DNA of 64,000 nucleotides from Armatimonadota bacterium (GTDB lineage: Bacteria > Armatimonadota > SYMT01), in the NCBI GenBank assembly GCA_041690135.1, contig JAWLHY010000002.1, forward strand, positions 688,342 to 752,341, given 5' to 3'. The notes under the pieces are model-generated. The model was not told the origin of the DNA. It saw only the letters and a list, made by a program, of their open reading frames with translations, and did not search any database. Positions 1,413 through 23,255 of this stretch are shown here, one piece after another (within the stretch, counting starts at the first letter, position 1; the number at the start of each line of letters is the position of its first letter). The position numbers were made by a program, and so were the translations under genes.

Positions 1413-1838
1413 ATGAAGACCTTTATGGCAAAGGCGGAGACGATCCAGCGGGAATGGTGGGTGGTGGATGCCACCGACAAGCCGCTGGGCCGGTTGGCCG
1501 CTGAGGTGGCCGCAATTCTGCGGGGTAAGCACAAGCCCACCTTTACCCCCCACATGGACTCCGGCGATCACGTGATTGTGATCAATGCGGACAAGGTGGT
1601 GCTGACGGGCAGCAAGGGCGAGGAGCGGATTTACTGGCACTCCCAGTATCCCGGTGGTCTCAAGTCCGTGACCAAGGCGGCGATGCACGAGAACAAGCCG
1701 GAGCGCCTGGTCGAGCGTACGATCAAAGGCATGCTTCCGCACAACCGGCTCGGTGCGCAGATGTACCGCAAGCTGAAGGTGTATGCCGGTGCGAGCCATC
1801 CGCATGAAGCGCAGGGCCCGAAGCCGCGCGAGATTTAA
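1413..1838 (+). CDS. rplM: 50S ribosomal protein L13
   Basis: [39 protein letters not shown]. Confidence 0.99.
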
Positions 1839-1865
1839 GATCCAGTTGAGAGTTGGAGGACTAGA

Positions 1866-2267
1866 TTGGCCGACGGAACCCTAACCTATTACGCCACGGG
1901 TCACCGGAAGAACGCCACCGCGAAGGTGTGGCTGGTTCCGGGCGGCTCGGGTACGATCACCGTGAACGGGCGGCCGGTGGAGGACTATGTCCAGCGCCGG
2001 GCCCTGGAAATGCTCGTTCAGCAGCCGTTTGAGATGACCGAGACCGTGGGGCAGTACGACGTGCGCGCCAAGGTACTCGGCGGCGGGATTTCCGGCCAGG
2101 CCGGCGCGCTCCGCCACGGAATCTCGAAGGCGCTCGTTGTCGCCGATCCGGAGTTCCGGCCGCCGCTGCGCCGGAACGGATTCCTCACGCGTGACCCGCG
2201 GGTGAAGGAACGGAAGAAGTACGGCCGCAAGCGCGCCCGGCGCGGGTTCCAGTTCAGCAAGCGCTAA
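1866..2267 (+). CDS. rpsI: 30S ribosomal protein S9
   Basis: [25 protein letters not shown]-terminal QFSKR; TTG start after GGAGG. Confidence 0.99.
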
Positions 2268-2306
2268 TCGCGAACTGATCTGGGGCTTCGGACCTGGAGC
2301 TTGGAT

Positions 2307-2345
2307 GCACACGCCCGCAGCACCCGCTGCGGGCGTGTGCTTTGT
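2307..2345 (+). terminator. Intrinsic terminator after rpsI
   Basis: Perfect 15-bp stem GCACACGCCCGCAGC-accc-GCTGCGGGCGTGTGC followed by TTTGT. Confidence 0.85.
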
Positions 2346-2513
2346 CTGGCGGAAGACTGGAAGTTCGTGGAACTCGGGCCGCAGGCTCGGCCGTCCTTTA
2401 CGTGGCACGTGTTTTCTCTCCCCCATAGAATCTCAACGTAGGAGTAGCGGGACCGGGTGGTGAACAACCCGGCGGACGTCTACCTCTGAGCTGCTTGCGC
2501 GCATACCAACTGG

Positions 2514-3521
2514 ATGGCACTGCTACACCGATTTCTCACCCTTGCCGCGGTCATAGCCGCTCCCGTCGCACCCGCGAAGGCCGATCTGCAAGTGTCGCTG
2601 CAGAATGCGCCCGCAGCCTCGGCTACCGCTGCGAGCGCTCGTACCGGCAAGAAAGTAGGCGGTAAGTCGGTCGCAATGAGCAAAGGGAGGCCGGTCGGGA
2701 AGGCGCCCGCGGTTCAGCGGGGAAGTCTGGCTTCGCGCTCGATGCCGCAGCAGGTGGGAGTGATGCGCCGGGGTGGGCCGCCGGTATTGCCGCCCATTGG
2801 TTCCACGTCGCTTGTGCCCGAGAGTGCACAGGCCGAGGCGGTGGAGACCTCTCCGGTGGCGGTGGATGCGCGCCTCGGGCGCATGATCGCTTATTCCACG
2901 GACGTCTACCGGCTTCCGGATCCTCGTTCCCAGTGGGTGGGCCGTCTGATGCAGGGGCAGCAGGTGGCGATTGTAAGCCAATGGGAAGGGTGGTACGCGG
3001 TGGTCATGGGGAACGGGAGCCAGGCGTACGTCCCGATGACTTCGGTGGAAGTGCTTCCCTATCAGGTGAAGTCGGTTACGCCAGTCGCTCCTAAACCGGC
3101 GCCCACGCCCACTGCCGGCGTGACGCAGATGGGCGGGGGGACGACGGCGGCCGCGGGTAACTTCGCGCGGGCGCTGATCCAGGAGGCGTTCAAGTACGAG
3201 GGGATGCCTTACGTCTACGGCGGCAACGGCGACGGCGGAATCGATTGCTCGGGCCTCGTAAAGAATTGCTACCGTTCGATAGGCCTGAATCTTCCCCGGC
3301 GGGCGAGCGAGCAGGCGCAGGTAGGTCAAGCGGTGCGCCTGGATCAACTCCAACCTGGTGACCGCCTGTATTTCTCGGTGAAGCGCCAGTTCGATCATAC
3401 CGGGATCTATCTTGGCAACGGTTACTTCATCCATGCCTCCGGCTCTCGCAAAAAGGTTACCGTCGATCACCTATCCACCGCGCTGTATGGGAAGAATCTG
3501 GAAAGCGCCCGCCGCTTCTAG
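2514..3521 (+). CDS. Secreted SH3b + NlpC/P60 (C40) cell-wall peptidase
   Basis: Signal peptide; SH3-like segment (EGWYAV...AYVP); PYVYGG..GIDCSGLV, DHTGIY, FIHAS (Cys-His-His). Confidence 0.92.
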   Translation: MALLHRFLTLAAVIAAPVAPAKADLQVSLQNAPAASATAASARTGKKVGGKSVAMSKGRPVGKAPAVQRGSLASRSMPQQVGVMRRGGPPVLPPIGSTSLVPESAQAEAVETSPVAVDARLGRMIAYSTDVYRLPDPRSQWVGRLMQGQQVAIVSQWEGWYAVVMGNGSQAYVPMTSVEVLPYQVKSVTPVAPKPAPTPTAGVTQMGGGTTAAAGNFARALIQEAFKYEGMPYVYGGNGDGGIDCSGLVKNCYRSIGLNLPRRASEQAQVGQAVRLDQLQPGDRLYFSVKRQFDHTGIYLGNGYFIHASGSRKKVTVDHLSTALYGKNLESARRF

Positions 3522-13221: not shown

Positions 13222-16077
13222 CTACTTTCCCGCCTTGCGCTGCAGCGCAAGGCGGAGTTGGCTTTTTGCTTCCGTGGCGTAAGGATCCAGGGACAGGGCC
13301 CGCCGGAATGCGGCGATCGCGGCATCGATCCGCTTCGTCTCCAGGTACAGTAGCCCGAGGTTGTAGTGGGGGAGCGCCAGGTCCGGCTGTAACTGAAGCG
13401 CCTTGCGGTAATTCTGTTCGGCTTCCGTAAGCTTCTTCCGCAGCTTGCATAAGTTGCCGAGGCCGTTGTAGGCGTGGGCGTGTTTCGGGTCCAACTGGAG
13501 TGCTTTCCGATAGGCCTGCTCTGCCTCCGGAAGTTTCTTCAGGTCGAGATAGACATTTCCCAGCCCATTGTGGGGAGAAGCGCTTCCGGGCTCCAGTTGC
13601 AGCGCCTTCCGGTAGGCCTGTTGAGCTTCGAAGTACTTCGCTTGCTTACGGAGCACATGTCCCAGTCCGGTATGTGAGTGGGCATAATCGGCGTCCAGTT
13701 CTATGGCTTTGCGGTAGGCTGCTCCCGCCTCCGCATATTTCCGCTGTTCCAGGAGCGCATTGCCGAGGTTGTGCTGGGCGCCCGAATCGGACGGGTCCCG
13801 CTCCAGGACATTGCGAAACGACTGCTCCGCCAGGGGGTATTTCTTCTGATCAAACAGCACGTTGCCCAGCGCGAAGTGGAAATCCGTGTCCTCGGGGTCC
13901 AGTTGCAGCCCCTTGCGGAAGATCTGCGCCGCTTCGGAGGACCTTCCCTGGTCCTGGACCACCCTCCCCAATTCAAAGAGAGCGAAAGTGTTCGTGGGCG
14001 CGAGGTCGAGAGCGCGCCGGTAGGAGTTTTCGGCCTCCACCCACTTCCTCTGGTCGTGGAGCGTGCGACCCAACTCGTAGAGAGCGCTGGCGTCCTTGGG
14101 AGCCAGCCGGATCGCCTCTCCGAACGCCGCTTCGGATTCTGTGTACTTCTTGAGAGCCCGTAAGACCTTCCCCAGACCCAGGTGGGTTGGGGCATCAGCC
14201 GGTTCCAGGGCAGCGGCCTTCTGGTAGCACTCGACTGCCTCCGGGAGCTTCTCCTGTTCGAAGAGCACGTTGCCGAGGTTGTAGTGAGCGGTGGCGGTGT
14301 CCTCCAACTCGAGGGCCTTGCGGAACGAGGCTTCCGCCTCCAGCAGCTTCTTCTGTTCTCGATAGATGTTGCCCAGCCCCACGTACGCCGCGGCGTACGT
14401 GGGGTCCAGCGCAACCGCCTTGCGGTAGACGGCTGCCGCATCCGCATGCTTGCCTAGCTTGTAAAGGGTGTTTCCCAGGTCCTGGAAGTTGGCAATCGCC
14501 ATGGGGTCCAGTTCGGTGGCTTTGCGCAGGGCTGCTTCCGCTTCGACCAGCTTCTGCTGGCGGTAGAGGGCGTACCCGAGAGCTCCATGCGCGGCTGCCG
14601 ACGTAGGATCCAGCTCCGCAGCTTTCCCGTAGGCAACCGTGGCCTCCGCCAGTTCGTGCTGCGCGTCGAGGGCGTTGCCGAGGTCGAGCTGAAAGTCGGC
14701 TCGCCCGGGATCCAATTCCAGCGCCTTTCGCAGTGCCGCGACCGCCTCCCCATAGCGCTTCTGGTGGTGCAGCGCGAGACCCAGCCGGTGGTGGGTATTG
14801 GGTGCTTCGGGGCGCACCTCCAGCGACTTGCGGTAGGCGCCTTCCGCCTCCGGATACCGTTCTTGGGATTCCAGCGCCAGTCCCAGATTATGGTGCGTGG
14901 CGCCGTCCCTCGGATTGAGTTCAAGAGCCTTGCGGTAGGACGCTTCGGCTTCCGGGTAGTGGTGCTGGTGATACAGCGCGTTACCCAGGTCGTGATGGGC
15001 GCTTGCTGATTCGGGCTTCAGTTCGAGGGCCTGGCGGTAGGCCTGTTCGGCGTCGGCGTGTTGTCCCCGATCCGTGAACAGGTGGCCCAGTTGGGTGCGC
15101 GGGTAGGGGTTCTTGGGGTCCATTTCGCCGGCCCGCCGCAAGAGGCGTTCGGCCTCCGAGTATTTCTTCTGCAGGCGGTAAACGGTCCCGAGACCGGTAT
15201 AGGGCGGGGCGTAAGTAGGGTCCAGTTCGATCGCCTTGAGGTGGGCCGTCTCCGCCTCGGCGTACTTCTCCTGGCTGGTGAGGGCGAGCCCCAATCCGAA
15301 GTGGCAGTTCGCCAGCTCGGGACGCACTTCGATGGCCCGGCGATAGGCCGCTTCGGCGTCCGCGTACTTCCCCCGCGCGCGATAGCCGTCCCCCAGGTTG
15401 AGGTGCGGGTCCACCGCGGTTGGTTCCAGTGCACCGGCCTTGCGGAACGCCGTCTCCGCTTCCTCATACTGGTGCTGTGCATCGAGCCACTGCCCCAGTT
15501 CGAAGTGGGCCAGCGAAGCCTGGGGCGCCAGCTCGACGGCACGCCGGAGGGCCTCCTCGGCTTCAGAGAATGCCTGCTGTCGAAGCATACGGCCGAGCAG
15601 GCAGAAGGCGAGGGCGCACTGCGGGTCGCTTTGGAGTGCCTGCCGGATTGCGTTCTTCGCCGTCTCGAAGTCTTTGCGATCCAGGGCGAGGGTGGCGAGC
15701 CCGAGGTGACCGATAGTCTGGCGGGCATCCTGTCGCACGCTCGCGCGCAGGTGCTTTTCTCCCGCCGCATAGTCCCCGTTCCGCACCAGGGCAAAGCCCA
15801 GCAGGGCCCGAGCCCCCGCATGGTCCGGGTCCAGGGCCAGAGCCGCGCGCGCCAGGGAAAATACCTTCTCGGGAACCTCAATCTGCGCCAGGAGCGGTTC
15901 TCCCAGGCTGACCAGGTCATCCGCCGCCCCAGCTTCGGACGCGCATTCCCGCTCGAAGGGCGGAATCGGCCGAACGACCCCGCCTTCCGGTAAGGAGTGG
16001 GGTCCTGCCCAAACGGTAGCCGGCGGGACGGTAGCCAGAGCCAGCAGCAGGACGACAGTCGTTGAAGCGGGTCGCAT
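13222..16077 (-). CDS. Secreted protein with more than 20 tandem TPR repeats
   Basis: 34-aa repeats (AHxxLG..L...gky.EA..AYRKAleLdP) run to the C-terminus; signal-like N-terminus MRPASTTVVLLLALA. Confidence 0.9.
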   Translation of the reverse strand: MRPASTTVVLLLALATVPPATVWAGPHSLPEGGVVRPIPPFERECASEAGAADDLVSLGEPLLAQIEVPEKVFSLARAALALDPDHAGARALLGFALVRNGDYAAGEKHLRASVRQDARQTIGHLGLATLALDRKDFETAKNAIRQALQSDPQCALAFCLLGRMLRQQAFSEAEEALRRAVELAPQASLAHFELGQWLDAQHQYEEAETAFRKAGALEPTAVDPHLNLGDGYRARGKYADAEAAYRRAIEVRPELANCHFGLGLALTSQEKYAEAETAHLKAIELDPTYAPPYTGLGTVYRLQKKYSEAERLLRRAGEMDPKNPYPRTQLGHLFTDRGQHADAEQAYRQALELKPESASAHHDLGNALYHQHHYPEAEASYRKALELNPRDGATHHNLGLALESQERYPEAEGAYRKSLEVRPEAPNTHHRLGLALHHQKRYGEAVAALRKALELDPGRADFQLDLGNALDAQHELAEATVAYGKAAELDPTSAAAHGALGYALYRQQKLVEAEAALRKATELDPMAIANFQDLGNTLYKLGKHADAAAVYRKAVALDPTYAAAYVGLGNIYREQKKLLEAEASFRKALELEDTATAHYNLGNVLFEQEKLPEAVECYQKAAALEPADAPTHLGLGKVLRALKKYTESEAAFGEAIRLAPKDASALYELGRTLHDQRKWVEAENSYRRALDLAPTNTFALFELGRVVQDQGRSSEAAQIFRKGLQLDPEDTDFHFALGNVLFDQKKYPLAEQSFRNVLERDPSDSGAQHNLGNALLEQRKYAEAGAAYRKAIELDADYAHSHTGLGHVLRKQAKYFEAQQAYRKALQLEPGSASPHNGLGNVYLDLKKLPEAEQAYRKALQLDPKHAHAYNGLGNLCKLRKKLTEAEQNYRKALQLQPDLALPHYNLGLLYLETKRIDAAIAAFRRALSLDPYATEAKSQLRLALQRKAGK

Positions 16078-16096
16078 CACGCACTCCAGAATAAAG

Positions 16097-17608
16097 TCAA
16101 CGGGGCCGCGTCGAGAGCGAGGCCAGGATCTCCTGCAGGTAGCGCCGTAGATAGAAACGGCCCATCCGGTCCTTGTCCGGGGAGAAGACGGGGGCATCCC
16201 CTTCGGGACGGCCCTCGCGCTGTAGGATGACGGCGGCGACCGGTCCTGTGCCTCCGGCAACCGGTCCGGGAACGCGTGCCACCAGGCGCAGGGCGGCACG
16301 CTCGAGCCAGGCCGCGCGGTCGCGGGCGTGGCCCTCTTGCTCTAGCCAGGCGATGGGGACCAGCGCCGCCAGTATCCCGCCGGCTCGGAGCCGCTCCAGC
16401 AACTGCGCGGGCCGGTGCGCGGAATGGGATCCGGCAACCAGGTCGGCGAGGAGCCAGGCCGGGCCCTTGCCGTCGGTCACCTCGCGCGCGGACCACTGGC
16501 GGACGGTCCGCACGAAAGCTCCGCCGAGCGGGTAGGCCTCCACCACGCGCGGTGCGCGGGTCGCACCTTCCCGCTCGCGGTCGAGGATGGCGCAGACACG
16601 GGCGAGGAACTGGCCCACTTCCCGTTGCCAGCCGCTCAGCTCCCGGCCTCCTTCTTCCGCGGGGGCGCCGCCGGGAAGGTAGCGCAGCACCTCATTCGCG
16701 GTCCGCTCCCCTCCACCCCAGGTGAGGCGATGGACCGAAGGCGCCTCTTCCCAGAGCTTCTTCACACCCTCGGGAGTTTCCGGGCCCCGATCGAGCGCCA
16801 CCACCGTCTTCCCCTGCCGGGCCGCCTCCCGACATTCGGCAGCCATGACTCCCTCCTCGCGGATGTCGACCGCTACCACCACGTCCGCCAGGGTGAAGAG
16901 CAGGCCGTCGCGCCGGGGACCACTGCGGGGATGCCACCGCTCGCGCCAGCCGCAGGGGGAGAGCAAGAGCTGGAGCTCCGGATCGAAAGCGGTGTCCCAG
17001 ACGCGGGCCGTGGCCACCGGTTCTCGTTCCAGGCCCGCGGGAAAGGCTTCCGCGATACCGCGGTCCAGGACCATCACGGTAGGGGCGGCATGGCGCTTGG
17101 CGGCGGTGGCGGCAGCCTGGTACGCCTCGCGGTTGGTGGAGGTGACGAGCGCCAGGTCGCGCCGTGCGAGGGCATCGGCCACCGCGTCGGTAATGGCAAT
17201 GGCGGCGTGAGACGCATTCCGGCTATTGGCAAAGGCGACCCGCGGCTCTTCGAACAGGCCCAGCGCACCGTAGGCGAACACCAGGGGCCACCGCCGGTGG
17301 GCCGACTGCGCCAGGATGGCGGGGTACTCCGCGTCCGAAGGGACCAGCACATCCACTCCGCGGCGGGTAATGTCTCTCGCTTCCTCCGCGGCCCGCTCCC
17401 AGCGCGCCTCCCCCTCGGTCTCCAGCAGGGCCACGGCGCGGGCATCCAAAGAAACGAGCCGGCGCAGGTCTTCGGGCGCGGCGAGCCAGAGGTCCGCCAG
17501 GCCCTGACGCCCCTCGCGCGCGTGGTCCATCAGAGCCAGGAGCGTGCGCTCACCCACGTGGGGCAACGCCGACCAGGCCAGCACCGCCTGTAGTTCTTGC
17601 GGGTCCAA
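16097..17608 (-). CDS. Divergent DprA/Smf-like protein fused to degenerate N6-adenine DNA methyltransferase-like domain
   Basis: LPHVG, D.EYP..L, P.vFAYG, ANSR (for VGSR), A.RQGKTV; C-terminus follows the HsdM/N6-MTase layout without DPACG or NPPF. Confidence 0.75.
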   Translation of the reverse strand: MDPQELQAVLAWSALPHVGERTLLALMDHAREGRQGLADLWLAAPEDLRRLVSLDARAVALLETEGEARWERAAEEARDITRRGVDVLVPSDAEYPAILAQSAHRRWPLVFAYGALGLFEEPRVAFANSRNASHAAIAITDAVADALARRDLALVTSTNREAYQAAATAAKRHAAPTVMVLDRGIAEAFPAGLEREPVATARVWDTAFDPELQLLLSPCGWRERWHPRSGPRRDGLLFTLADVVVAVDIREEGVMAAECREAARQGKTVVALDRGPETPEGVKKLWEEAPSVHRLTWGGGERTANEVLRYLPGGAPAEEGGRELSGWQREVGQFLARVCAILDREREGATRAPRVVEAYPLGGAFVRTVRQWSAREVTDGKGPAWLLADLVAGSHSAHRPAQLLERLRAGGILAALVPIAWLEQEGHARDRAAWLERAALRLVARVPGPVAGGTGPVAAVILQREGRPEGDAPVFSPDKDRMGRFYLRRYLQEILASLSTRPR

Positions 17609-17842
17609 CAGTTAGCTCCTTGCCTTCGGTTGATCAGGATTGAGATGAAGATTGGGATCAGGATGGCGAGGGATCAGAGGTGCTGCCGGGTTAAACCGCC
17701 GGGTCGCCAACCCCGCCAAGAAAGAGACGAGGATCCTCAATTTCACCACAGAGAACACGAGCTTCCTCGTATGGAAGCGCTCGGATTGAGGAAGACGGGG
17801 ATCCTGTGAAGACTTGGCCCTTACCCAGGTACTCGTGGCACA

Positions 17843-18343
17843 TCAAAACGCCCCAATGGGGTTTGGGCGGAGTGCGAAACCACATTGCCAGGCTTTCTCG
17901 AACACCGTTCGGGAACAGGTGCTGTGAGCTTGTGTCGAGAGCGTAGCGTGGGAAAGTGGGTCGGAGAATGTCACCTGGAAGTCATCGATCGCCACTATGA
18001 CAACCGCGTGGAGCGGGCAGAAGCCATCCAGCGCATATCCAAGCACTTCGTCGTCGTAGGCGTGCAGGTTGGCGATAACCGGGGTGGGGTCGGGTTCGGA
18101 AAGGTGTGCCTCTACTTCCTCCAGGGTAAATGCCGGGATGGCCTGAACACCTGCCAGATTGCTGATGTTGCTGAATGGTGTGCCGGTATGGGGATCGAAT
18201 TCGAGTTGCTCTATAATCGTCTCCCAGGAATGTTCGATCCCCAAGAAGGCGCAAACCATCGCGACGCAGGCGGGAACACAGGCAGGAAGATCCTCCTCCT
18301 GGGGTTCGTAGGGAAACTCATCGGGATTGGGCAGCGACGGCAT
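17843..18343 (-). CDS. Cytoplasmic C39-like (papain-fold) cysteine peptidase
   Basis: PQEEDLPACVPACVAMV (Gln, Cys), LHAVVIVAID (His), FSDP (Asp), F.KAW C-terminus. Confidence 0.8.
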   Translation of the reverse strand: MPSLPNPDEFPYEPQEEDLPACVPACVAMVCAFLGIEHSWETIIEQLEFDPHTGTPFSNISNLAGVQAIPAFTLEEVEAHLSEPDPTPVIANLHAYDDEVLGYALDGFCPLHAVVIVAIDDFQVTFSDPLSHATLSTQAHSTCSRTVFEKAWQCGFALRPNPIGAF

Positions 18344-19610
18344 GCTGTGGCCCTTCTTGGGACTCGCTGACTACTCCTGTAATGGCGTCAACGTACAGCT
18401 TGCCTGCAGGGTGTTTGCCAGGTTCCGCCCAGCCCTCGGGTAATCTCGCCGCATCTTCCCTCGATAGACCGCGGGGAGGCGAGTAAAAAAAGGCGATCTC
18501 CCAGAGCCTCTCTGTTCTACGGGCCGGAAGTTCTACGCCGAACCTCTGACCGCGCGTGTGCGAAAGGTATGCGCAGGCGGCTCGGACGGCCTGCTGCTCA
18601 TTAGTGACACCCGGCCAGGGATCCGCGATCAGACGCGAGGGAATCCCCTGGTTGATGCGGTGTTCCCAGTAGAGCGCATCTTGTAGACGGCTCAATTCAT
18701 CCGCCCCTTTAGGGGTTATTGATCCCGACCGGGTAGCACCCTTGAGCGTCTCATATTGCTCAAGCTTCCGATCATCCAGGAGGCGGACTGGAAGCAGGGG
18801 TGTCCGGGGCCAGCCTGCGAACAATTCTTCTTGAGAGCCAGGATGATCTCTGGTATGCGGTGCCTCCTTGATAAGCTCTCTCGCTTCCTTCTCTGACCAA
18901 CCGTAGAGTTCGACGACCGCACTGAGCAAGTAGAGTTGGTGATCACGGATGTAGGATGGCAGGTCCAATCGGCAGGCCGACTGTGCTTCATACAGTTGAT
19001 GCAGGCGATAAGAGAGCAAAGCGACCTGCGCAAAAGTACTCGGCTTGAGCGCTGGGGCCGCTATCGGTAATCTCTCCAGTACTTTCTTAGCGAGTTCCTT
19101 GCTCTGGCTACCAACTTCCTGGGCAGTGCGAGCATAGAGAACGTGACCTATGGCGCTGTTCAGGATCCCTACCACCGCGAACGCCATCGCCAGTTCCCAG
19201 CCGGGTGCCAGTGCACCTATCCATGCCCGCCTGGGATAGATCGCCTCCGCGGTCACGGACCAGCGCAGATTGGCGGAACGGTCTGCCGCCACCAGCTTCA
19301 CCGGTGCATCCACGAGGGGTCGCGGGAGCTTCGTGATATGTGAACTGCCGTCTGCCTTTGCGAAGGCCGCCGAAATATCCTCGTACAGTGCCCACTGTTC
19401 TCGCCGGTGATAGTGGTAGCTCTTCAGGTCGGCAGCCTGGAGCACCCGGTAGTGCTCCGGAGATTCGCGCAGCCGGCCAACTGGAACAGTCACCTTCGGT
19501 GGGAAGCGAGCGCAACGGAGCGGCTCGATGATCCGCCCGAGCAGGATGAACTCCTGTTCTTCCTTCACCGACTTCGCAACCCGATCCAGCAGTTGAGTCC
19601 CTGTTGCCAT
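18318..19610 (-). CDS. TaqI-C/Eco57I-like target-recognition domain fused to helical and PepSY-like domains
   Basis: VVGILNS...LERLPI...VVELYGWSEKEA; C-terminal EQQAVRAA..YL...W.I...GKLYVDAITG; start placed at ATG 19610. Confidence 0.65.
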   Translation of the reverse strand: MATGTQLLDRVAKSVKEEQEFILLGRIIEPLRCARFPPKVTVPVGRLRESPEHYRVLQAADLKSYHYHRREQWALYEDISAAFAKADGSSHITKLPRPLVDAPVKLVAADRSANLRWSVTAEAIYPRRAWIGALAPGWELAMAFAVVGILNSAIGHVLYARTAQEVGSQSKELAKKVLERLPIAAPALKPSTFAQVALLSYRLHQLYEAQSACRLDLPSYIRDHQLYLLSAVVELYGWSEKEARELIKEAPHTRDHPGSQEELFAGWPRTPLLPVRLLDDRKLEQYETLKGATRSGSITPKGADELSRLQDALYWEHRINQGIPSRLIADPWPGVTNEQQAVRAACAYLSHTRGQRFGVELPARRTERLWEIAFFYSPPRGLSREDAARLPEGWAEPGKHPAGKLYVDAITGVVSESQEGPQHAVAAQSR

Positions 19611-19728: not shown

Positions 19729-21384
19729 TTACTCTCTCCGAGTGATCTCTGAGGTTGAGCCTTCCCATCGGCAGATTTCTCGGAGGAGCCGGTGTGTCTC
19801 TTCCCGGCTGGGGGTGGTGGTCCAGAGCTGCTCGCGGAACCGCTGATAGGGACCGAGGAGCGGGTGGGCCAGGAAGGCCTCGTAATCAATCCCCATCTCT
19901 CGCAGTTCCTGGGTGACCGTGGCCAGGTTGCCCCGCCGGCGATCCCGGGCGAGGCGTCGATTCAGCTCTGTCTGAATAGGCTCGGGCTGCTCCGCCACCA
20001 TGAACTTGAGGACGTTCTGGTCCAGGTTCGCACCGAACCGCTCCAGATACTCCGGTCCGGGATCAAGCGGAATCTCATCGGCCAGGGTTTCGAACAACGG
20101 CGGTTCGGGTGCCTCGCGGTCTCGAGTCCAGATCGCCTTCAGCAGCAGTCGCCGCCGCAGATCCTCCGGTTCCTCCTCCAGGTAGCGGTCGATGAGCGCA
20201 CAGGCGGCCGCTGGGTCCACCAGCACCTCGCCTTTCCACACGCTGAGCCCGGCGAGAGCCGCCTCCAGATGGCGGGCGAAGAAGGGTGGATTGAGGTAGG
20301 CGCCGTGGACGGGTCCCCGCGGATCGGTCCGACACTGGACTCGGATCCGGTCACCGGCGGCGTGGTCCAGGTAGGCGCGGAGATGGGGGAGGTGCGCCAG
20401 GCCGGCCACGTGGACCGCACGCAGTTCTCCTCCCGGCTCCACCGCGCGCGCAGCCCGGCATACCTTCTCCAGCAGCACTTCCAGCAGGTAGAAGTCGTTT
20501 ACCCCCAGCAGGAACCCTTCCAGGATCTGCTGCTGCACGAACTGCGGCAGCTCCGCTGCCGGTACCTGGAACTCGCGCGCCAGCGGCGCCAGGCGTTCCA
20601 CGGTGTAAGCTTCCACTTCCAACACCGGCGCGGGGGCGTGATCATACAGCACCAAGTGCCGCCCCGCACCCACCGGATTCTCCGAGGCGCCGACGTGGAC
20701 GATCCGGTTCGCCGCGAAGGCCTCCTGGAGGTGCGGCGGCAGGTCCGCGAAAAGTACTTCCAGCGACACGGGCTCCGGGCCCACTCCGCCAAGCTCTTGC
20801 CGGGGATAGCTTTGCGCATTGGGATAGGGGAGCGCGAGCGCCGGGGCCTCGAAGTCGTTCGCGACCAGCCCGTGCCGGTAGTAGAGGCGCGCGCGCAAGT
20901 AGCGGACGTGGGGGTTGACGTTGCAGCCAACGGTCCCGAAGCGCGGCGCGTTCCGGCGACAGTGCTCCAGGAGATCGAGCCAGAAGATGTTGCGGATGTG
21001 AACTTCCGCCTCACCACCGCTCTCGTCGCTGCTATTCGGTGCGGCGAGATACGCCTTCACGGGAGTGGTCGGCAGCTCCAGGCTGACCAGGTCAGCCTCC
21101 CGTACGACGGGGACTTCGCTCGGGAACCAGTGGCCGATATGCTCCACCCCCAGAAACGTCAGGACGAGCCGACGGTCCCCCTGGCGCAGGAGATCATCCA
21201 GCTTCCGGAGCAGGAAGCCGATCCGGTTGAGGTAGCGGTGTCGGGACGCCACGGGATACACGTGATCAGGACCAGGATGGCGATCGAAATCAAGAAGCGA
21301 CGCTGCGGGACCCGTCTCCGGAACATACAGAGAAGGGTGTCCCACATAGCTTCGCTGCCGGGCAAGAGGTTCCCTGCCTGCCAA
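19729..21384 (-). CDS. Hypothetical protein, possible EreA/ChaN/TraB-like fold
   Basis: Long ORF with normal codon bias; FLGVEH near N-terminus and VHVAGLAHLPHL later; start uncertain. Confidence 0.45.
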   Translation of the reverse strand: MAGREPLARQRSYVGHPSLYVPETGPAASLLDFDRHPGPDHVYPVASRHRYLNRIGFLLRKLDDLLRQGDRRLVLTFLGVEHIGHWFPSEVPVVREADLVSLELPTTPVKAYLAAPNSSDESGGEAEVHIRNIFWLDLLEHCRRNAPRFGTVGCNVNPHVRYLRARLYYRHGLVANDFEAPALALPYPNAQSYPRQELGGVGPEPVSLEVLFADLPPHLQEAFAANRIVHVGASENPVGAGRHLVLYDHAPAPVLEVEAYTVERLAPLAREFQVPAAELPQFVQQQILEGFLLGVNDFYLLEVLLEKVCRAARAVEPGGELRAVHVAGLAHLPHLRAYLDHAAGDRIRVQCRTDPRGPVHGAYLNPPFFARHLEAALAGLSVWKGEVLVDPAAACALIDRYLEEEPEDLRRRLLLKAIWTRDREAPEPPLFETLADEIPLDPGPEYLERFGANLDQNVLKFMVAEQPEPIQTELNRRLARDRRRGNLATVTQELREMGIDYEAFLAHPLLGPYQRFREQLWTTTPSREETHRLLREICRWEGSTSEITRRE

Positions 21385-21505
21385 CGCGAAAGCGTAGTTC
21401 GTTTCTCAGGATTCCGGTGAGGCCTTGACCCGGATGGGAACGGATGGAGCCGATAGGCACGGAGCCGGTGGGTGAGGGAAGATCGTTAGTCGTGGATAGG
21501 ACCGA

Positions 21506-22070: not shown

Positions 22071-22955
22071 TCAGTCGGGCTTCCGCGCCACGACCAGTAC
22101 GCAGCCGCCCTCGCCGGTGGCGTGTTCGCGCTCCACGGTAAGGCCCGCCTCGCGGAGTACCGGGTGGAACTGTCCCGTGCTGTAGCAGGGAATGCGCGCG
22201 CTGAGGCCGCCCGCCAGCCCCGAGCGGTCGAGCTTTTCCCAGCGGTCCAGGATCAGAGTGGCGCCCGGCGCCATGATTCCTGTGAAGAAGCGAATCTCTT
22301 GCGCCAGTTCCTCCAGGGAGAGTTGCTGGGTGAGACCCAGGGAGAGGACCGCGTGGAACGGGCCTTCCTGCGCAGCTATGGCCGTCACGCCACGGTGGCG
22401 CCGCAGGTCTTCCTGCAAGAATGTGATCGCATGCCCGGCGCACCGGGCGTTCCAACTCGCTTCGGGGAGCACGGTACCTTCGGGGTCCAGGTCCACGCCC
22501 CAGCAGCGCACGCGGCCCGCGACCTCCGGTCGGGTCGCCCGGAGGCGCTCCAGCATGCCGGTAAGCTCGCAGCCCAGGCCGCAGGGGGTGCTGAGGACGC
22601 GGCACTCCCGCTCGCCGGAGCGGATCTGCATGACCGCGGCGGCGGTCAGTTCGCCGGTGGCGGCTTCCAGTCGCTCGCGCAGGCCGCGGTGGATCGGGAG
22701 TTCGAGGACCATCCGGTCGGCCACGCTCCCGAGCAGGCCCCTCTCCGGCGTGGGGACGTTGGCGTAGACGCGGGCGAGGTTCCGCGCGTCGTAGCCGCGG
22801 GTGAGGATCTCCCGCGCCAGGGCGCTGGAGAGGATAGGGAGGCAGCGCCCCTGTCCGCTTTCGACGAGCCCGTGGGCCATGCGGACCGGAGCCGGAGTCG
22901 AAGGGCTTTGTATACGCGCCCGCAGGCGCTCCCGTGCCAAAGTGAGGGCACTCAT
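22071..22955 (-). CDS. Class I SAM-dependent methyltransferase-like protein
   Basis: VLSTPCGLG, GVDLD, FLQED, SLGL, MAPGATLI; start at ATG 22955 or GTG 23009. Confidence 0.75.
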   Translation of the reverse strand: MSALTLARERLRARIQSPSTPAPVRMAHGLVESGQGRCLPILSSALAREILTRGYDARNLARVYANVPTPERGLLGSVADRMVLELPIHRGLRERLEAATGELTAAAVMQIRSGERECRVLSTPCGLGCELTGMLERLRATRPEVAGRVRCWGVDLDPEGTVLPEASWNARCAGHAITFLQEDLRRHRGVTAIAAQEGPFHAVLSLGLTQQLSLEELAQEIRFFTGIMAPGATLILDRWEKLDRSGLAGGLSARIPCYSTGQFHPVLREAGLTVEREHATGEGGCVLVVARKPD

Positions 22956-23255
22956 TCCGTTAGTGGTCTCCGCCTCTAAAGAGAAAGAGAAATCCAGTAC
23001 AACTTTCACGCGCGAAATGCGACACTCGCGCGGTCTGCTTTGTCTCTGTCATATAGACTTACGCTATGACCGTGGTCGCCGTCGCGGGACCTTAGACCTA
23101 TATTCGGTCCCCTCCGGCCCTCAATGCCAGCCCATCCTCTGCAGCGGGCGGCAGCGGGGTCGGCAGGCGACCTTCGAGCGGGGCGGGATGGAGATTGACC
23201 GCAAGCCCGCCGGTAGATCCTGCCGGAGACGCCGCGATTCTGATGAGGATGGTGT

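Follow-up and report, generated by a model that had tools for sequence, protein, structure and literature searches.

A free-standing target-recognition-like protein and a C39-like peptidase are encoded by a candidate toxin-antitoxin-like cassette in an Armatimonadota genome

The DNA analyzed in this study is a 64,000-nucleotide (nt) stretch from the genome of an Armatimonadota bacterium, which we refer to as a whole as the window. Its guanine-plus-cytosine (GC) content is 65.6%. Three co-oriented genes on the minus strand at positions 16097 to 19610, here called A, B, and C, had been singled out in an earlier note on this sequence, and the open reading frames (ORFs) lie as that note described them. 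The note proposed that the three genes form one system in which the two halves of a restriction-modification (R-M) enzyme were split and reused. Our results instead set A and B apart as a pair, which is probably a toxin-antitoxin (TA)-like cassette, and point to C as a gene with a separate history. The features of A and B are as follows.

18318-19610, minus strand: gene A, 430 amino acids (aa) from the ATG start common to all homologues; a stand-alone protein with a target-recognition domain (TRD)-like fold and an inhibitor-like tail, in the antitoxin position
18876-19574, minus strand: A residues 13-245, with the TRD fold of gamma-class N6-adenine methyltransferases (MTases)
18630-18782, minus strand: A residues 277-327, a helical hairpin that is part of the predicted interface with B
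18360-18611, minus strand: A residues 334-417, a small alpha+beta tail, weakly cystatin/PepSY-like in fold, that varies across the family
18537-18563, minus strand: A residues 350-358 (S-H-T-R-G-Q-R-F-G), a conserved loop predicted to lie in the active site of B
17843-18343, minus strand: gene B, 166 aa, a putative cytoplasmic C39-like cysteine peptidase in the toxin/effector position
18278-18280, 18008-18010, and 17960-17962, minus strand: codons for B Cys22, His112, and Asp128, respectively
18318-18343, minus strand: the 26-nt overlap of the A stop region with the B start, taken from the ORF coordinates

The protein encoded by gene A had been described as a TaqI-C-like TRD with a PepSY-like tail. 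The Pfam family TaqI_C (PF12950) matches A below threshold (E 0.036; 14.8 bits versus a cut-off of 26.5) and only over profile positions 78 to 118, and there is no PADLOC or NCBIfam match to the protein. We built an AlphaFold2 model of A with 55 relatives and searched for similar folds with VIA using that model, which is confident over all three parts of the protein (predicted local distance difference test score [pLDDT], 91.5; predicted template-modeling score, 0.87). Residues 13-245 match the TRDs of M.BseCI (residues 317-578; Z 17.6, root-mean-square deviation 3.5, 210 residues aligned) and CamA (residues 331-577; Z 17.5), with 204-210 residues aligned across these two proteins. Other VIA matches to the same region include PglX/BrxX (Z 15-17), M.TaqI residues 256-409 (Z 12), MmeI, and type I HsdS proteins (Z about 10), and the TRD fold was also recovered with Foldseek (E 1.2e-5). 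Furthermore, LNSxxG and YPxR motifs are common to the A family and the TRDs of gamma-class MTases, and the A family profile gives weak matches to genuine Eco57I/N6_Mtase enzymes of other genomes, within their TaqI_C region (coordinate overlap was verified for locus L020). The TRD-like domain of A is basic, with a net charge of +6 and an isoelectric point of 9.3.

The remainder of A consists of the hairpin, whose helices span residues 280-294 and 300-320 in the model (YnzC-like, Z 7.5), and the tail. Residues 334-417 match a cystatin-fold design (Z 6.2) and the C-terminal PepSY domain of YpeB (Z 5.6) over 60 to 63 residues, which is a weak match given that Z values of this size are common according to the warning issued by VIA itself. 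Thus, the TRD half of the earlier description of A is borne out by the fold matches, with Z values of up to 17.6, and the PepSY-like half is plausible only.

Close homologues of A were identified as 10 full-length proteins in a collection of 5.8 billion proteins. These are 413-440 aa long, are 38-89% identical, and share 63 invariant columns; Gly354 and Gln355 are invariant in all 10 sequences. An exhaustive profile search among 1.84 billion proteins returned 80 clusters at 50% identity. No attached MTase domain is present in any of these 80 relatives, and none is longer than 531 aa, indicating that the stand-alone form is the norm for the family. Most of the 80 clusters align with A only over positions of about 17 to 330, and we therefore view the TRD plus hairpin as the constant module of the family and the tail as its variable part. 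The A profile matches 10 of 401 genomes of the phylum. A scan with the A alignment yielded no locus from genome contigs and two loci only from metagenomes (L005 and L006), and an atlas look-up gave only leads scoring below 0.9, to stand-alone TaqI_C clusters.

These data also bear on the idea, raised in the earlier note, that the TRD gene is a decaying R-M fragment. According to this explanation, A is the remnant of a type IIG or TaqI-like R-M gene and B is an unrelated neighbor. The weak and partial Pfam match to TaqI_C would fit such a history, as would the fact that no MTase or nuclease was seen nearby. However, decay is contradicted by 10 full-length homologues with 63 invariant columns, by the confident model over all three parts of A, by the lack of any longer relative among the 80 clusters, and by the co-inheritance of B with A that is described below. 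We give this explanation almost no chance of being correct.

Gene B matches two Pfam families above their cut-offs: Peptidase_C39_2 (PF13529; 32.8 bits versus 24) and Peptidase_C39 (PF03412; 22.7 bits versus 22). Its product has no N-terminal hydrophobic stretch, which together with the 26-nt overlap agrees with the previous description of B as an overlapping cytoplasmic cysteine protease. The overlap also implies that translation of the two genes is coupled. The B family comprises 12 proteins in the 5.8-billion-protein collection, and Gln15, Cys22, His112, and Asp128 are nearly invariant across 14 B-family sequences. The exceptions among the 14 are P0152, from which the His/Asp segment is deleted, and P0158, which is truncated at its N terminus. 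When B is compared with the solved C39-like peptidase 3erv, Cys22 and His112 align with the Cys and His residues of that enzyme. We saw no ABC transporter among the flanking ORFs and no double-glycine leader substrate nearby, and B is a free protein of 166 aa.

The exceptional sequence P0152 is the B homologue of the closest relative of the window genes. It is 126 aa long, and an in-frame deletion of about 40 residues removes the counterparts of His112 and Asp128. In the same relative, proteins A and C (89% and 86% identity, respectively) are full length, and their contig size (5780) is the same as that for P0152. This deletion could be a toxin inactivation or an assembly artifact. Because the catalytic segment of B was lost in a near relative whose A protein is intact, the change looks as if a harmful partner had been lost.

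A and B are a conserved, co-inherited unit. In both metagenome loci, a B homologue (49% and 44% identity) is located directly after the A homologue, and five further pairs of A and B proteins have equal longest-contig sizes (5780, 10449, 2796, 7635, and 6137). In addition to being co-inherited, the two genes are adjacent, co-directional, and overlapping, and their distribution is patchy. They also share an atypical composition. The GC content is 59.4% for A and 57.5% for B compared to 71.8% for C, and the GC content at third codon positions (GC3) is 0.63-0.65 for A and B compared to a native value of 0.82 for C and values of 0.77-0.85 for the four neighbors that were tested. Their co-occurrence, along with a common low GC3 that is unlike that of their neighbors, argues that the cassette is a foreign two-gene insert. 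Neither direct repeats flanking A-B nor tRNA-like insertion scars were seen.

A small gene is located directly downstream of the A-family gene in all eight loci whose DNA was read. This downstream gene encodes a C39-like protein in three loci (the window, L005, and L006), a DUF5615 protein in L016 (81.4 bits) and L018 (68.8 bits), and a PIN protein in L024/L004 (58.5 bits). The downstream gene at L015 has a weak match to DUF5615 (E 0.0084), and the one at L017 resembles that of L015 (E 5e-11). Likewise, the tails of the A proteins differ, with a C-terminal DUF433 domain present on 10 of 33 longer A relatives. In the available text of two papers, DUF433 is predicted to be an antitoxin of PIN-family toxins (PMC2701414), and DUF433 and PIN_10/COG4634 are named as the two parts of a TA system (PMC5499597). 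Given the DUF433 tails and the DUF5615 or PIN genes that follow, A thus occupies the place of the antitoxin in a family that swaps partners.

Several of these loci have features of their own. At L016 (positions 1420-3122) and L018 (positions 1-830), whose two source genomes belong to a different family within the phylum, a TRD-like N-terminal domain plus DUF433 (75 bits) is followed by an overlapping gene for a DUF5615/Mut7-C-like protein. At L004/L024 (G016:C541, positions 830-2870), an ORF with a Fic_N domain (74 bits) is directly upstream of the pair formed by the A-like and PIN genes, and it may be a further addiction or defense gene at the same spot. At L017, we considered the ORF at positions 993-1499 as a B homologue and rejected it. 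This ORF is unlike B, and the overlapping frame at positions 1190-1705 is the one that resembles the downstream gene of L015.

The C-terminal part of A (residues 270-430) was then modeled in complex with B using our own shallow alignments (10 and 14 rows). The interface score (ipSAE) for A-B is 0.81, with values of 0.78, 0.83, and 0.81 in three runs, whereas the best control scored 0.00. In a calibration that holds only roughly for this model, the mark of 0.81 is reached by 58 of 80 solved complexes and by 2 of 110 mismatched pairs. At least 85% of contacts are common to the runs, and the partners have pLDDT values of 86 or higher. The predicted interface is formed by the hairpin (A residues 280-322) and the tail. 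Contacts with the lowest error pair A residues 350-357 with B residues 53-57, 20-23, and 111-113, and for A residue 355 the expected error is about 1 Å at its contacts with B residues 20, 22, 23, and 111-113. These contacts put the conserved Gly354-Gln355 loop on Cys22 and His112 of B. In this model, A is predicted to bind B at its active site.

As the best explanation for these findings, we propose that A-B is probably a horizontally acquired type II TA-like (or toxin-immunity) cassette, composed of a TRD-bearing antitoxin and a protease effector. In the proposed mechanism, A would insert the RGQRFG loop of its tail into the catalytic cleft of B and thereby keep the peptidase silent. The basic TRD-like domain might bind DNA, either for autoregulation or as a sensor. 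If A were lost or rearranged, the B peptidase could be freed. We infer that B would be harmful when free and that A would inhibit B rather than being cut by it. The TRD-like domain is a reusable N-terminal module, and distant relatives have a DUF433 antitoxin domain in place of the tail and a DUF5615 or PIN nuclease toxin in place of the partner.

The same contacts can be read in another way. A and B might be a regulatory proteolysis pair of the ImmR/ImmA kind, in which A is a DNA-binding regulator that acts through its TRD. B would then be the dedicated peptidase of A, or a Gln-modifying papain-fold enzyme, that acts at the RGQRFG loop in response to a signal. The modeled position of the Gly354-Gln355 loop on Cys22 and His112 would fit a substrate as well as an inhibitor, the TRD is basic, and ImmA-type protease/repressor pairs in TA-like networks serve as a precedent in the available text of PMC10440598. 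However, distant relatives have a downstream PIN or DUF5615 nuclease and a DUF433 antitoxin tail, a combination that fits with neutralization and does not fit with processing. Similarly, the B protein of the near relative described above lost His112 and Asp128, whereas its A protein is intact. We therefore consider regulatory proteolysis to be an unlikely basis for the A-B association.

Several observations weigh against a TA-like cassette. The five additional co-occurrences of A and B rest on equal contig sizes and not on DNA that was read. Only eight loci reveal the downstream gene, and among these L016 and L018 are from one family, and L015 and L024 are from one genome. B is very acidic (net charge of -21), and A is 2.6 times its size, both of which are unusual for classical TA pairs. 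The likeness of the A tail to PepSY domains and cystatins is weak (Z 5.6-6.2), and residue 355 is Glu in the A homologue of L006. The calibration of the complex score holds only roughly because our own shallow alignments were used, and the complex model would fit a plug and a substrate equally, such that it cannot separate an inhibitor from a substrate. The regions upstream of A homologues share no operator-like inverted repeat; an unrelated one is present in two of five. Finally, PADLOC gives no match for A or B, and the surroundings of A-B in the window are metabolic, with no defense island.

A more specific version of the cassette proposal assigns a guard function to the TRD-like domain. 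This domain would be a reusable antitoxin sensor, namely an R-M specificity domain acting as a decoy that responds to foreign DNA, to a DNA modification, or to an Ocr-type DNA mimic with which a phage counters restriction. Its engagement would release the effector held by the tail (C39-like, PIN, or DUF5615), leading to abortive infection. The chances that this combination of sensing and release is correct appear slim. If it were true, these genes would represent a new guard-type defense family, and the first with a free C39-like protease under a cystatin-like plug.

The component folds of the cassette are known, and its logic is that of type II TA modules. The TA systems formed by DUF433 (COG2442, VapB45-type) and PIN/COG4634/PIN_10 (DUF5615) are similar to A-B in gene order, overlap, and the size of the downstream gene, and distant A-family members themselves have a DUF433 domain, with a DUF5615 or PIN gene behind them. 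However, the pair in the window has a cystatin/PepSY-like tail and a C39-like peptidase, with no DUF433 and no nuclease. Moreover, A has an additional domain, TRD-like and about 330 aa long, that goes unmentioned in the available text of PMC2701414 and PMC5499597. A second comparison is with the hyperpromiscuous antitoxin domains of Panacea/PanA and the NetFlax network, in which one conserved domain is present on antitoxins of unrelated toxins and neutralization is provided by a separate, swappable domain (PMC10440598, available text). Partner swapping is the likeness here, whereas the conserved domain of A has an R-M target-recognition fold rather than Panacea or a helix-turn-helix. Also, the A family numbers only 80 clusters at 50% identity, and its TA role is predicted.

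With regard to the individual proteins, A shares its fold with HsdS and with the TRDs of the gamma-class MTases M.TaqI, M.BseCI, CamA, PglX/BrxX, and MmeI (Z 10-17.6), but members of the A family have no MTase domain and are fused instead to putative toxin-binding tails. Esub1 from Streptococcus pyogenes (8vsr_B, Z 10.9; PMC11754733) resembles A in being TRD-like without belonging to an R-M enzyme. It is 185 aa long and lacks a tail, and the available text of that paper mentions no toxin downstream of it; the likeness is one of fold only. B shares its Pfam match and its Cys-His-Asp residues with C39 and C39-like papain-fold peptidases. C39-like domains (Tox-PLC39) are toxin domains of polymorphic toxins with cognate immunity proteins according to the available text of PMC3482391, whereas B is free and cytoplasmic, with no ABC transporter and no secretion or RHS carrier.

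In the article text available to our search, we found no paper in which an antitoxin carries a TRD or in which a free C39-like protease is the effector of a TA system. Should the proposed roles of A and B hold, the TA repertoire would gain a protease effector and an R-M-derived recognition domain, and one TRD-like module would be combined with at least three unrelated effectors. What an orphan specificity domain senses would then be a testable question that involves few small genes.

The third gene and its border with the cassette are described by the following features.

17609-17842, no strand: the 234-nt spacer between B and C, at the border of low-GC3 and native DNA
16097-17608, minus strand: gene C, 503 aa, a DprA/ShosA-fold paralogue with a motif-less N6-MTase-like domain; outside the A-B module
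16118-16639, minus strand: C residues 324-497, with a reduced class-I MTase fold

Gene C had been interpreted as a DprA protein carrying an N6-MTase-like domain without catalytic motifs, and our searches agree. The DprA family PF02481 matches C with 45.2 bits (cut-off 29.6), whereas TIGR00732 yields 31.5 bits versus an equivalog cut-off of 191. Residues 1-314 match both ShosA and Streptococcus pneumoniae DprA (Z 25.6 each), and residues 324-497 match the MTase domains of CamA (residues 30-299; Z 12.6), PglX (Z 13.0), and BseCI (Z 12.4) over about 168 residues. Motif IV, (D/N/S)PP(Y/F/W), is absent from all 18 C-family members. A conserved motif I (GxGxG) is likewise absent from the 18, in which three stray GxGxG strings occur at non-homologous places. 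At the expected location of motif IV the family has an invariant (A/V)-D-L, and at that of motif V/VI it has GG-x-L-x-A-x-V-P-x-x-W-L. A canonical DprA is encoded on another contig of the same genome (G000:C15:168037-168654, L007), where a 372-aa frame matches PF02481 with 244.8 bits versus 47.5 for C, and C is therefore a second, divergent paralogue.

The distribution of C differs from that of A. Searched alone, its C-terminal domain turns up in all 6 same-family genomes and in the single same-order genome, and the other 393 genomes of the phylum yield three weak partial matches only (E 1e-4 to 1e-3). Neither A nor B is located near C in any of five same-family loci, within the flanks examined, and no neighbor of C is conserved across the five; these loci and the same-family genomes share contig coordinates and thus are the same genomes rather than independent samples. 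Judging from these sequences, the whole family has inherited C vertically, as a DprA paralogue whose MTase-like domain seems to be catalytically dead.

These results speak to the original proposal that A, B, and C constitute one split R-M system with the protease or DprA as its output. The three genes are co-oriented and adjacent, the A TRD and the C pseudo-MTase share CamA, M.BseCI, and PglX as their best structural matches, and the near relative seems to carry all three genes on one 5780-bp contig, as judged from equal contig sizes. Because the proteins of this relative are 86-89% identical to those of the window, its three-gene contig reflects shared ancestry rather than independent linkage. 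In contrast, C is universal in the same-family and same-order genomes, whereas the A profile matches only 1 of the 6 same-family genomes, and there on another contig. As noted above, A and B are missing from the examined flanks of C in all five loci. In L006, the gene after A and B encodes a dehydrogenase and points the other way, and the 3.1 kb downstream contains no DprA gene; genome G016 has two A-like genes and no C. Furthermore, the GC3 break (0.63/0.65 versus 0.82) and the 234-nt gap fall between B and C, in line with the caution expressed in the earlier note that the adjacency might be coincidental. Of the neighborhood co-occurrence that the note suggested as a check, the A-B pair recurs, and C is not found beside A or B at any of the five C loci outside close kin. 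The co-occurrence evidence is thus against the TRD and the pseudo-MTase being two reused halves of one R-M enzyme, and we find a single three-gene system to be very improbable. C is, with little doubt, a bystander that is a coincidental neighbor of A-B.

The similarity of C to known antiphage proteins can be explained in the same context. The PADLOC profiles for ShosA and PsyrA match C (E 1.2e-13) on account of the common fold, and C shares only this DprA/ShosA fold with the ShosTA/PsyrTA systems, which pair a DprA-like antitoxin with a phosphoribosyltransferase-type toxin. C has no such toxin partner and has a dead MTase C terminus. No ShosT- or PsyrT-like partner is found beside C: A, B, and the ORF upstream of A have no PADLOC match, and the gene downstream of C encodes a tetratricopeptide-repeat (TPR) protein. 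This outcome is consistent with the expectation in the earlier note that PADLOC would recognize no full system. The DprA/pseudo-MTase fusion is thereby recast as a lineage marker gene rather than part of a defense system, which removes a false lead. Even so, as an uncharacterized family-wide DprA paralogue, C merits a separate look.

The wider neighborhood of the three genes is metabolic and includes genes for a DUF1501 protein, a thiamine pyrophosphate enzyme, a pectate lyase, a cytochrome b, and an M81 peptidase. Among the nine flanking ORFs that were scanned, we saw no endonuclease or intact DNA MTase, as the earlier note had also reported. The sole methyltransferase-like signal near the three genes is a sub-threshold match to Methyltransf_20 (19.7 bits versus a cut-off of 21), which is not a DNA MTase family, in the ORF at positions 22071-23009 (minus strand, 312 aa).

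Upstream of A, about 550 codons are open on both strands (19729-21384, minus strand, 551 aa; 19792-21420, plus strand), and the two frames have nearly identical profiles of GC content by codon position. The 551-aa ORF has no Pfam, PADLOC, or NCBIfam match on either strand and no homologue in L005 or the other fetched loci. We considered it as a module member and left it out, given that it has no homologue at any fetched locus.

Downstream of C, the ORF at positions 13222-16299 (minus strand) encodes the TPR-repeat protein of about 950 aa with 20 or more repeats, and its start region overlaps the end of C. A signal-peptide-like stretch (MRPASTTVVLLLALATV...) starts about 75 codons into this ORF. 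The TPR gene is not kept beside C in relatives. A search for transcription signals gave no convincing promoter or terminator, with 0 promoter-like sites and 3 terminator-like sites versus 2.7 expected. The B-C spacer contains three imperfect tandem repeats of 12 nt each (GATCAGGATTGAGA-type units) at positions 17632-17669, just upstream of the C start, which could serve C as an operator or promoter element.

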